This document shows positions 5,390-7,047 of a DNA stretch of 26,008 nucleotides, in pieces. The DNA is from Alphaproteobacteria bacterium (lineage in GTDB: Bacteria; Pseudomonadota; Alphaproteobacteria; Rs-D84; NBLK01). Position numbers and translations under genes: made by a program. The stretch is taken from positions 1-26,008 of the forward strand of contig JAFGXE010000065.1 of the NCBI GenBank assembly GCA_016936785.1, given 5' to 3'. The notes below the pieces were generated by a model, which was not told where the DNA came from, ran no database searches, and saw only the letters and a program-made list of their open reading frames with translations. How positions within the stretch are numbered: the first letter of the stretch is position 1; each line of letters opens with the position of its first letter.

Positions 5390-6481
5390 ATGACACATCG
5401 ATATTTTTCTTATTTTTTTTGGACGGGAATTTGTCTCATTCTTGCGTTCACTCTTTTTGCCACGCAATTTCAGATGAATATCTTTTCTGGACGCCACTGG
5501 ATGCTTCTTCTAAAATATAGTGGAAAAGCGCCTCAAAGTCTTTGGATAAGCTGGGGAGGGGTTGCTGTTTTTTGGTTGGGCGGTCTTGCATTTTTTCGTT
5601 TTCGGTTAAAAGAATCTAAAATGGTTTACGATGTGAAAAGTGGTGCAAAGATTTCTGTCACAGAGAATGGTGAGTTGCGCCCTAAAATGGTTTCTGAATC
5701 ATCTTATGTGCCAGAAGAACATCATTATAAGCCTTCTACTTATTCTCCTCCAGCGCAGAAACGAGATGTCCCAAAAATTAAAGTGCCTCAGAAAATTGAG
5801 AAAAAAATTGAGCAGGAAGTCGTTGAAGCAAAAGAAGAAATTTATCAAGTTCCTGTCCAATCGCCTGTTCAAGAAGAGAAAGTTTCAAAACCATCAAAAG
5901 TTGACGTGTCTCAAAAAGAGGTTTCAAAGAAAAAAGAAATTGTTGATTTACTGAGTGTTTTGAAAGAAAAGTTTTCTGCGCAGAAAATTAAAATAGTTGA
6001 CTCGTTTGCCATGGGAAATGAAAAAATTGATTTTTATGCTTTGACAGATGACGCGTTATTTTTAGGGAAGATATTTCAAACTGAAACTGGAATCATGATG
6101 CCAGAAACAGAAAAATTTGAGGATCAAACTCCAAGTTGGATGTTGGCAAATAAAGAGCGAATTTCCTCTCCTCCGGCTGTTATGTTGGGGCTATTTGAAC
6201 AAGTTAAAGAGATGTGCAATAAGGCGTTCAAAGAAAATATTCCATTTGAAATTAAGCCATTTATTCTCTTTTCAGATCAAGATGTGCGAAAATTTGATAT
6301 GCTTAAAGAAAAATATCAATCTCGCGGTCTTTCGGTGTTGAATGCGGAGGATGATTCTTTGGTGAAGTTTATTTCAGGCGCGCATGAAGAGCCTTCAAAG
6401 AGTTTTGTGAGCTTCTCTGCAACGCTTGCGCATTATTTTGATTCAAATTACCCACTTCAATCAAATGATGAGGATAGTTAA
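5390..6481 (+). CDS. Membrane-anchored protein with a degenerate NERD/PD-(D/E)xK-like C-terminal domain
   Basis: Two N-terminal hydrophobic segments and a K/E/P/V-rich linker, then 'KIDFYALTDDALFLGKIF..TG...PSW...ISSP...IKPFILF', which follows the NERD pattern but lacks the E-x-K. The CDS is certain; the family is inferred. Confidence 0.5.
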   Translation: MTHRYFSYFFWTGICLILAFTLFATQFQMNIFSGRHWMLLLKYSGKAPQSLWISWGGVAVFWLGGLAFFRFRLKESKMVYDVKSGAKISVTENGELRPKMVSESSYVPEEHHYKPSTYSPPAQKRDVPKIKVPQKIEKKIEQEVVEAKEEIYQVPVQSPVQEEKVSKPSKVDVSQKEVSKKKEIVDLLSVLKEKFSAQKIKIVDSFAMGNEKIDFYALTDDALFLGKIFQTETGIMMPETEKFEDQTPSWMLANKERISSPPAVMLGLFEQVKEMCNKAFKENIPFEIKPFILFSDQDVRKFDMLKEKYQSRGLSVLNAEDDSLVKFISGAHEEPSKSFVSFSATLAHYFDSNYPLQSNDEDS

Positions 6482-7047
6482 TGAGTACACTCTCTTTTGC
6501 ATTTTGGCAGAATGAAATGGCGCGGATGGGATTACCTGAAATGCCCTTAAAGGATGCTCAAAAAACTTCTGAGAATCCTGTTTTTTGCGAGCCATCTACT
6601 TACCATACGCTTGTGCATGCGTTTTTGAAAAAGGTGGGTTTTGATCATAAAGATATGCAAGATTTGTGGCGAATTTCACTCACGCGAGAAGGAATTATAC
6701 AGATCCGAGAAGGAAAACTTCCTGAGAATCTTGATGTGATTTTTAAAGTGCCTTTGGATTATGGGGGTGAAGCAAATATGGAGAATATGCTTCTCATTCA
6801 GACACATCCTTTTGTCGATATTCTTTTTAAATTTATGCGTGAACAATGCAAGCGATATCATCAGTCTGAAGGTGAGAAGTCCGCTTTATATGGCTATAAG
6901 AAACCACCGAAACTTTTTGTGCCAGATTTAAACCGTCGTGTTTTTGTGCCGGCAATGTTGGGCTGGACATCCCCTGCAGGGAATGGAGCGACGGATCGTA
7001 TGACACAAGCGGGGATTAGCATTGCTTCAGAGGGACGTGATGTTTAG
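6481..7047 (+). CDS. HNH-endonuclease-toxin-like domain lacking catalytic histidines
   Basis: 'FLKKVG...IREGKLPENLDVIFKVPLDYGGEANMENMLLIQTHPFV' parallels the HNH toxin pattern G..P....VHHK.PLD.GG.N...NL.LI...P.H, with HH->IF and the last H->V. Start is TAATG-coupled. Confidence 0.6.
   Translation: MSTLSFAFWQNEMARMGLPEMPLKDAQKTSENPVFCEPSTYHTLVHAFLKKVGFDHKDMQDLWRISLTREGIIQIREGKLPENLDVIFKVPLDYGGEANMENMLLIQTHPFVDILFKFMREQCKRYHQSEGEKSALYGYKKPPKLFVPDLNRRVFVPAMLGWTSPAGNGATDRMTQAGISIASEGRDV

Follow-up and report, generated by a model that had tools for sequence, protein, structure and literature searches.

A histidine-less HNH toxin-like domain and its SUKH partner conserved across an alphaproteobacterial order: a probably domesticated pair with virD4 synteny in related lineages

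Zhang et al. have described HNH toxins with SUKH immunity proteins (PMC3113570, PMC3482391). As a rule, pairs of a toxin and its immunity protein are mobile, evolve fast and can be dispensed with, whereas the pair analyzed here appears disarmed and has been fixed and conserved for the lifetime of its order. It is located in a 26,008-nt stretch of DNA from an Alphaproteobacteria bacterium (the window; contig JAFGXE010000065.1 of assembly GCA_016936785.1, positions 1 to 26,008 of the forward strand; GTDB lineage Bacteria; Pseudomonadota; Alphaproteobacteria; Rs-D84; NBLK01), and all coordinates and strands of open reading frames (ORFs) given below are positions in this window. The gene in question (6481-7047) encodes a stand-alone protein of 188 amino acids (aa), the window protein, and is situated between the gene of a membrane protein (gene 1) and the gene of a SUKH protein (gene 3). 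A first reading of the DNA letters, the original prediction, had taken it for an HNH toxin domain with substituted histidines that is kept for binding. The analysis demonstrates that the window protein is a vertically inherited, single-copy and strongly constrained descendant of an HNH deoxyribonuclease (DNase) toxin domain.

In Escherichia coli K-12, the gene of YhhZ ('putative endonuclease YhhZ', b3442) is directly followed by yrhA (b3443). The C-terminal domain of YhhZ (approximately residues 278-383) is homologous to the window protein (BLASTP, 38% over 42 aa, pairwise E = 2e-8), and P0036, a histidine-bearing relative of the window protein, aligned with YhhZ over 112 aa at 37% identity (pairwise E = 6e-16). 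The likeness includes the next gene, as the SUKH protein of the window matched the NCBIfam model of the YrhA family (NF038335) above its cut-off (E 2.1e-15, 56.9 bits against 55). However, YhhZ reads NVHHK...PYH where the window protein reads DVIFK...PFV, and YhhZ possesses an N-terminal part of about 275 aa and is encoded by an island gene, whereas the window protein stands alone and is encoded by a core gene of its order. YhhZ is linked to effectors of the Hcp-ET1 type, which belong to the type VI secretion system. When E. coli genomes were searched at the DNA level with the HNH and YrhA gene pair of IncHI2 plasmids, yhhZ was not reached; this link was made at the protein level.

The same order, toxin domain and then YrhA/SUKH, is found in Bacillus subtilis, where a type VII secretion system (T7SS) LXG toxin (WP_109962769.1) is accompanied by a YrhA-family protein (WP_109962768.1). 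BLASTP aligned the window protein with the C-terminal domain of this toxin over 69 ungapped residues at 32% identity (pairwise E = 1e-11). The alignment places DVIFKVPLDYGG of the window over QVHHKLPLDDGG of the toxin and covers two helices ahead of the motif as well as the beta hairpin. An LXG delivery domain (PF04740, E 2.8e-57) and an intact VHHK/YH set the toxin apart from the window protein, and its gene is found next to bsrG and yolD in a mobile region of the SPbeta-like type. LXG toxins act as DNases in competition between strains (PMC8321402). Searching with P0036 by tblastn revealed matches in 458 plasmids; the annotated plasmid relatives comprised the B. subtilis 'T7SS effector LXG polymorphic toxin', of which the C-terminal ~135 residues matched, and genes annotated as 'HNH endonuclease' on IncHI2 plasmids; in every case a 'YrhA family protein' gene comes next. 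The members of this toxin family (YhhZ C-terminus, B. subtilis LXG C-terminus and IncHI2-plasmid 'HNH endonucleases') are thus all paired with a YrhA-type SUKH gene. The direct match to the LXG C-terminus, together with the presence of the same domain in YhhZ ahead of yrhA, indicates that the resemblance to Firmicute LXG/T7SS HNH toxin domains, which the original prediction had noted, is real homology, and the LXG toxin, with a YrhA family protein behind it, counts as one of the relatives with the best annotation. BLAST of the window SUKH protein against the B. subtilis YrhA-family protein found no pairwise similarity, and these two are linked via the family model only.

The window protein was searched with phmmer against 1.84 billion representatives, which yielded 57 relatives at E ≤ 1e-3. 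The consensus of the aligned relatives was PENfnV-H87-[LIM]88-K-x-P..YGG..N102-L.LIQT-H109-P-y-H112-xx-I-H116-kFID.Q, with histidine at position 87 in 38/53 representatives and at positions 112 and 116 in the numbers given in Table 1. The window protein carries I87, F88, H109, V112 and F116. Codons 85-88 read GAT GTG ATT TTT, in agreement with the peptide quoted in the original prediction, and its HH to IF and H to V substitutions (I87-F88 and V112) are present where the toxin relatives carry histidine. The analysis refines it in two respects, as the third family histidine, H116, is also replaced, by F116, and as H109 is retained in the window genome's family but mostly lacking elsewhere in the order. 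The HNH family model (PF01844) was reached weakly by 3/53 relatives, the PF21431 profile had no match in the window's own genome, and hmmsearch of a close-homologue profile against PDB sequences returned noise only (a SAM sensor at E 0.33). The divergent HNH family Tox-REHH ('Rehh', 2026 preprint) was considered and rejected, the spacing of its R46, H52, E53, H102 and H121 being different from that of H87/H112/H116.

A structural model of the window protein was generated by AlphaFold2 with a 53-sequence alignment (predicted local distance difference test (pLDDT) 89.2, predicted TM-score (pTM) 0.79). In this model strand 84-88, strand 103-107 and helix 108-129 form a beta-beta-alpha unit, with helices ahead of it and a low-confidence tail after it. 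The best structural matches included the DNase domains of colicins E7/E9 and pyocins S2/AP41 (Tox-ColE7; PF21431). In Foldseek the top ~30 PDB matches were all colicin E2/E7/E9 or pyocin S2/S8/AP41 DNase domains (best E 6.7e-3, probability 0.99), the third-ranked one covering 86 residues at a root-mean-square deviation (rmsd) of 3.0 Å. VIA-align, which is independent of Foldseek, placed a Cas8-HNH domain first (Z 5.7), the C-terminal domain of mouse teneurin-2 second (Z 4.4), then colicins E7 and E9 (Z 4.3 and 4.2), and other HNH enzymes next. A profile of the histidine-bearing relatives aligned gaplessly with the pyocin AP41 motif IHHVVPLESGG...N...H..IH (E 0.031), so that HH..GG..N..HxxxH coincided. 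Moreover, hhalign against three Col-Pyo_DNase domains taken from genomes gave P = 1e-3 for an alignment of 75 columns that took in the helices ahead of the motif, and in a protein atlas the HNH, Col-Pyo_DNase and Tox-GHH clusters stood at 0.89-0.92. Although each of these scores is modest, they agree on one fold, and the homology to YhhZ and LXG toxins, established from sequence, does not depend on them. An HNH-like fold, as claimed in the original prediction, was thereby recovered. Tox-ColE7 domains are listed with Imm-SUKH partners (PMC3482391). However, the four histidines of the colicins are all missing from the window protein, its scores against them are weak, and no member of its family reaches the Pfam models of this group.

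The AP41 alignments identify position 87 with the first and position 88 with the second histidine of the colicin 'HH' pair. Colicin E9 uses the first histidine of this pair to bind metal and the second as its general base. A strand-1 histidine in the role of general base is described in PMC5714182. In the window protein this residue at the end of the first strand is absent (F88, preceded by I87), and the metal-binding residues of the helix are absent as well (V112 and F116 against H112 and H116 in the consensus), whereas the scaffold residues P81, N83, K89, P91, G95-G96, N102, P110 and Q122 are kept. The general-base histidine and all three metal-ligand positions have therefore been lost, and this holds throughout the order. 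We infer that the protein is no longer able to cleave nucleic acid by the His-Me mechanism.

Inactive His-Me domains in which the fold is conserved despite the loss of histidines, as in the window protein, are known from the teneurin C-terminal Tox-GHH, the nuclease-like domain of ENPP1-3 and Smad MH1. The teneurin GHH domain is non-catalytic with a proposed binding or structural role (PMC3482391), and the ENPP and Smad His-Me domains are non-catalytic and kept for binding (PMC5714182). These domains are eukaryotic and fused in large proteins, whereas the window protein is bacterial, stands alone, has an immunity-type partner and shows synteny with the coupling protein of the type IV secretion system (T4SS). 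Both the annotated domain family (YhhZ, LXG C-termini, plasmid 'HNH endonucleases') and inactive His-Me domains kept for binding are thus already known. In the literature, no bacterial stand-alone histidine-less HNH core gene of an order was found, none with the immunity-type partner kept and none with VirD4 synteny. The SUKH paper (PMC3113570) mentions neither inactive nor alphaproteobacterial versions, and a literature search on VirD4 with SUKH found no paper describing a virD4 / HNH-like / SUKH operon.

The distribution of the gene was analyzed in 201 genomes of the order (0.7-1.1 Mb), in which a family-profile search gave one and only one match in 197 genomes. Among the homologues, the six closest (58-69% identity; metagenome-assembled genomes labelled Alphaproteobacteria or Rickettsiaceae) all carry I87-F88. 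A wider survey of 40 loci from six families of the order did not reveal histidine at position 87, 112 or 116 in a single locus. Position 87 is occupied by R, Y, I, M or K, position 112 by K, S, G or A, and position 116 by D in 30/40 loci and otherwise by F or S. Position 109 is F, R, H or N, with H109 in 8/40 loci that belong to the window's own family and a few others only. In contrast to these positions, P81, N83, K/R89, P91, G95, G96, N102, P110 and Q122 are near-invariant in the 40 loci. As close and distant orthologues all lack the histidines, their loss is ancient and not private to the window genome, and the outcome that would have refuted the original prediction, histidines retained in close homologues, did not occur. 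In a maximum-likelihood tree built with the five trait columns removed, 53 of the 55 histidine-less rows fell on one side of a single branch (SH-aLRT 86), and the two losses elsewhere were isolated.

The ORF is open over 188 codons without an internal stop and is coupled on both sides, as had been proposed: the TAA of the upstream 363-codon ORF (6479-6481) shares one base with the ATG at 6481, and the in-frame ATG of the SUKH gene at 7040, preceded by a GAGGGA Shine-Dalgarno sequence, gives an 8-nt overlap with the TAG of the HNH-like gene (7045-7047). Nei-Gojobori estimates of the ratio of nonsynonymous to synonymous substitution rates (dN/dS) for the closest pairs were 0.04-0.13 at dS 0.65-1.2. 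Together with the single copy in 197/201 genomes, this supported the earlier view that the gene is not a decaying pseudogene. The behaviour of a toxin was not seen in the window protein, which at 188 aa stands alone without a delivery domain and is single-copy, not sporadic, multi-copy or mobile. Genomes of 0.7-1.1 Mb keep little without need, and the gene may thus represent a clean bacterial pseudo-enzyme derived from a conflict system.

The product of gene 3 also matched Pfam SMI1_KNR4 (PF09346; E 1.8e-5; 25.8 bits, cut-off 25.4), with SUKH_6 and SUKH_5 just under their cut-offs. A SUKH gene is located directly downstream of the HNH-like gene in 38/40 loci of the order and in 10/10 loci from the class outside the order (class loci). 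The charge contrast between the two partners is relaxed: the median isoelectric point of the HNH domains was 6.0 for dead against 7.8 for histidine-bearing copies, and that of the SUKH partners was 6.3 in the order against 4.6-5.2 beside histidine-bearing copies. This relaxed basic-toxin / acidic-immunity pattern is a soft signal that fits a release from the constraints of DNA mimicry.

Two further segments of the window protein, an N-terminal one (FW..E..R.GLPEMP) and the tail GGN..D[RK][ML][ST][EQ], are as conserved as the fold core. The tail motif is conserved across the order and can still be discerned in histidine-bearing relatives (SGGK..DRSVYAGF); with a pLDDT of ~52-60 in the model, the tail is probably disordered. 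The motif is a candidate for partner binding or secretion.

Across the order the gene order is fixed, with abutting genes for the membrane protein, the HNH-like protein and the SUKH protein, whereas the flanking genes vary (ileS in locus L001 versus a DEAD-box helicase and glyA in the window). In the three-gene operon of the window's family no small RHH-type gene comes after the SUKH gene, which in the window is directly followed by glyA, and L001 lacks such a gene as well. In a sample of 149 alphaproteobacterial families outside the order, 17 showed matches, at 1-6 per genome. The top copy of each genome is 226-433 aa long and consists of an N-terminal MWDWSG motif, a Pro/Gln-rich linker and the full domain, and the SUKH gene is always next. 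Directly upstream of these class copies is the gene of the T4SS coupling protein VirD4/TraG (PF02534, E 1e-35 to 1e-53), and upstream of virD4 one or two genes are homologous to gene 1, which encodes the membrane PD-(D/E)xK protein. These homologues were not found by phmmer and hidden Markov model searches in short loci and appeared with 19-kb flanks only. In four different families (loci L059-L061 and L063) the genes of TM-NERD, VirD4, HNH-like and SUKH proteins lie on one strand, flanked by housekeeping genes. The position of virD4 upstream of the class copies and of gene 1 homologues upstream of virD4 indicates that TM-NERD-like, VirD4, HNH-like and SUKH formed the ancestral unit.

The virD4 operon of these uncultured Alphaproteobacteria shares its orthologous genes, their order and their common strand with the window, and the general-base histidine of position 88 is already gone there. 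It differs in that virD4 lies between genes 1 and 2, that H87, H112 and H116 are kept, and that the MWDWSG motif and the linker are present. All copies linked to virD4 show the pattern V-H-x-K, where position 88 is M, V, L, Q, R or I, so that the three metal-ligand histidines are retained without the general base, whereas in genome G218, which also has a linked copy, the paralogues not linked to virD4 have NVHHK. A graded natural series from VHHK toxins through virD4-linked VHxK copies to histidine-less copies is thus available and is of use for distinguishing binding and catalysis in HNH toxins as well as in their SUKH partners. The disarming probably proceeded in two steps, with the general base lost first in the virD4-linked lineage and the metal ligands later at the base of the order.

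The product of gene 1 in the window gave no Pfam match, and the NERD model (PF08378) was matched weakly by 3/23 orthologous C-domains (best E 8.9e-4). AlphaFold2 modelling of residues 183-363 (pLDDT 89.5) followed by VIA-align ranked AF1548 first (Z 8.8 over 108 aa, rmsd 3.1), with Cdn1 (8.3), NucS (8.3), BstEII (8.2) and Can2 (8.2) among the ~17 matches after it, all of which were PD-(D/E)xK nucleases. The domain is therefore confidently predicted to adopt the PD-(D/E)xK restriction-endonuclease-like fold. In the strand where ExK would be expected, the window has LGK, the order's other families have VGI or LGL, and the homologues beside virD4 have LCY or LCL. An A-[DN]-E motif is nearly invariant, and its E57 (domain numbering) could serve as an alternative acidic residue. 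In the window the C-domain (5936-6478) shows this motif plus a conserved Trp and Ser-Pro (E57, W68, S78-P79) without ExK, and the virD4-linked homologues show the same pattern (GDWLADEE...LWFSE...SP), also without ExK. The domain had probably become non-canonical before the order arose.

The presence of a core gene throughout the order and of relatives in one operon with VirD4 moves the interpretation from a toxin remnant to a secretion-linked domesticated module. On balance, the analysis favours a non-catalytic, domesticated toxin/immunity pair that would work by binding and is probably linked to a T4SS as an accessory or a substrate. The most economical binding partner would be the SUKH protein, through the inherited toxin-immunity interface, and the N-terminal segment and the GGN..DR tail would be candidate contacts to the membrane protein and/or VirD4. 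The trio would then serve the T4SS, be it as a complex with an accessory or adaptor role or as a dedicated substrate without enzymatic activity. The data fail to separate a part of the secretion machine from a secreted non-enzymatic substrate with a SUKH chaperone. That the pair is a part of the machine is proposed tentatively. A specific form of this proposal, put forward with somewhat more reserve, is that a DNase toxin, its SUKH protein and a membrane protein of nuclease fold were turned into a VirD4 accessory complex, which would gate or adapt substrates or would handle DNA without cleaving it. In Alphaproteobacteria with reduced genomes, such a complex would work for the T4SS that is scattered over the chromosome, and it would be indispensable enough to be kept almost universally in the order. 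The virD4 synteny makes recruitment a testable idea, which could help to find new components or substrates of the scattered, Rickettsiales-like T4SS that uncultured symbionts carry.

Several observations weigh against a domesticated, secretion-linked pair. In the order, virD4 does not adjoin the module (it is 38 kb off in G020 and about 150-175 kb off in G051 and G192), and in the window genome it is found on another contig, C42. Three of the four order genomes without the HNH-like gene keep virD4, and in the fourth the SUKH gene stands at a contig start, so that the absence of the HNH-like gene there reflects a cut in the assembly; co-loss with virD4 is therefore not supported. As virD4 is apart from the module in the order and is kept without it, the link to the T4SS comes from synteny in the sister lineages only. 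The SH-aLRT of 86 is below the threshold of 95, which makes the grouping of the histidine-less copies suggestive but not firmly resolved. The structural scores are weak in absolute terms (best Foldseek E 6.7e-3, VIA Z ≤ 5.7). Pfam gave no family at E ≤ 10 for the 188-aa protein, and thus none above the cut-offs of HNH (PF01844) or Col-Pyo_DNase (PF21431). The active-site geometry is deduced from alignments, and D116 in most of the order, as well as H109 in the window protein, could in principle bind metal.

Among the alternatives, the one that survives best, while still rather unlikely, is that the HNH-like protein is a non-enzymatic T4SS substrate, an effector delivered to a host or neighbouring cell, with the SUKH protein as a cytoplasmic chaperone or adaptor and not as a component of a complex bound to the machine. 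Its relatives are encoded directly after virD4, the genome has a T4SS gene (virD4 on C42), and the conserved, probably disordered C-terminal tail resembles that of many T4SS substrates. However, near-universal single copy and a dN/dS of ~0.1 are unusual for effectors, which tend to turn over quickly. The known signal type of VirB/D4 substrates is basic, whereas the tail motif is acidic or neutral.

It is less probable still that the protein is an active nuclease or toxin with non-canonical residues, the SUKH protein being a true immunity protein or antitoxin of a chromosomally fixed addiction module. The toxin-immunity gene order and the translational coupling have been kept, and some His-Me enzymes do swap the catalytic histidine, for example for Tyr in PacI (PMC5714182); one family of the order has Tyr at position 87, and D116 is frequent. 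Nevertheless, no candidate catalytic residue is conserved across the order at positions 87, 112, 116 or 109, and the window protein itself has I87, F88, V112 and F116. Moreover, the charge pattern of a basic toxin and an acidic immunity protein is gone, and the distribution is that of a single-copy core gene, not of a mobile or polymorphic one.

A relic on its way to loss, or a chance likeness to HNH, would fit the absence of a Pfam or NCBIfam match for the query and the loss of every catalytic residue, but it is highly improbable, being already contradicted by an ORF intact in 197/201 small genomes, the low dN/dS and the significant homology to YhhZ and LXG toxin domains, to which the confidently predicted fold may be added. 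The domesticated, presumably binding pair remains the preferred reading. The coordinates of the operon and of its residues are collected in Table 1.

Table 1. Features of the operon in the window
Feature	Position	Strand	Remark
Promoter-like site, TTGAAT, 17-nt spacer, TATACT	5354..5382	+	Consensus scan, 9/12 matches, pattern match only; directly ahead of the operon's first gene
Gene 1, 363 aa, N-terminal membrane segments, charged low-complexity linker and predicted C-terminal PD-(D/E)xK-fold (NERD-like) domain	5390..6481	+	
Gene 2, 188 aa, histidine-less HNH (His-Me finger) domain, YhhZ / LXG-toxin C-terminal family	6481..7047	+	
I87 F88, in place of the His-His pair of canonical toxins	6739..6744	+	VHHK in YhhZ, LXG toxin and IncHI2 'HNH endonuclease'
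N102, structural Asn of the H-N-H motif, kept	6784..6786	+	N in 52/53 family representatives and 39/40 order orthologues
H109, codon in the window gene	6805-6807	+	Kept in the window genome's family
V112, where the helix His (metal ligand) is expected	6814..6816	+	H in 34/53 representatives, 0/40 in the order
F116, where the second helix His is expected (HxxxH spacing as in colicin E7/E9)	6826..6828	+	H in 32/53 representatives, 0/40 in the order
Tail motif AGNGATDRMTQ, residues 166-176	6976..7008	+	Consensus GGN-[AT]-[ST]-x-D-[RK]-[ML]-[ST]-[EQ]
Gene 3, SUKH / YrhA family, former immunity partner, 136 aa from ATG 7040 or 142 aa from TTG 7022	7040..7450	+	

Several other HNH-like copies were observed in addition. 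In genome G218, two paralogues located away from virD4 (L062:4850-5410:- and L062:9589-10173:+) show the canonical NVHHK...H...H, one of them with its own SUKH gene, and the copy linked to virD4 has NIHVR. This single genome therefore harbours armed as well as half-disarmed versions. The virD4-linked relatives in loci L043-L049 (e.g., L043:1495-2505:- and L044:1498-2547:-) begin with a conserved MWDW[ST]G, followed by a Pro/Gln-rich low-complexity linker of 100-250 aa and then the HNH-like domain; the MWDW[ST]G motif could be a targeting or partner-binding peptide. In genome G343, a 457-aa protein (L053:2025-3398:+) contains two tandem HNH-like domains of the window gene's family, with a 235-aa copy of the HH type encoded directly upstream; in the tree the copy of the 457-aa protein is counted as histidine-less (RHQND at the five trait positions). 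A pyocin-like ORF of 881 aa in genome G560 (L058:1501-1854:+ and L054:1501-1872:+) has two tandem Col-Pyo_DNase domains, the first of which reads FELLYQ against FELHH, a naturally histidine-less HNH toxin domain beside an intact one.

A scan of the window found no terminator-like site within the three operon genes. The SUKH gene (+) and glyA (-, 7425-8576) are convergent with a 26-nt overlap (7425-7450), and no terminator-like site was found between them. On the other side, a 129-aa ORF (4881-5270, -) is transcribed divergently from the operon. It carries a lipoprotein-type signal (…LVGCSS) and two EF-hand-like loops, DTNKDGKVSLEEF and DTNSDGFITKEEY, and from these features it probably encodes an exported calcium-binding lipoprotein.

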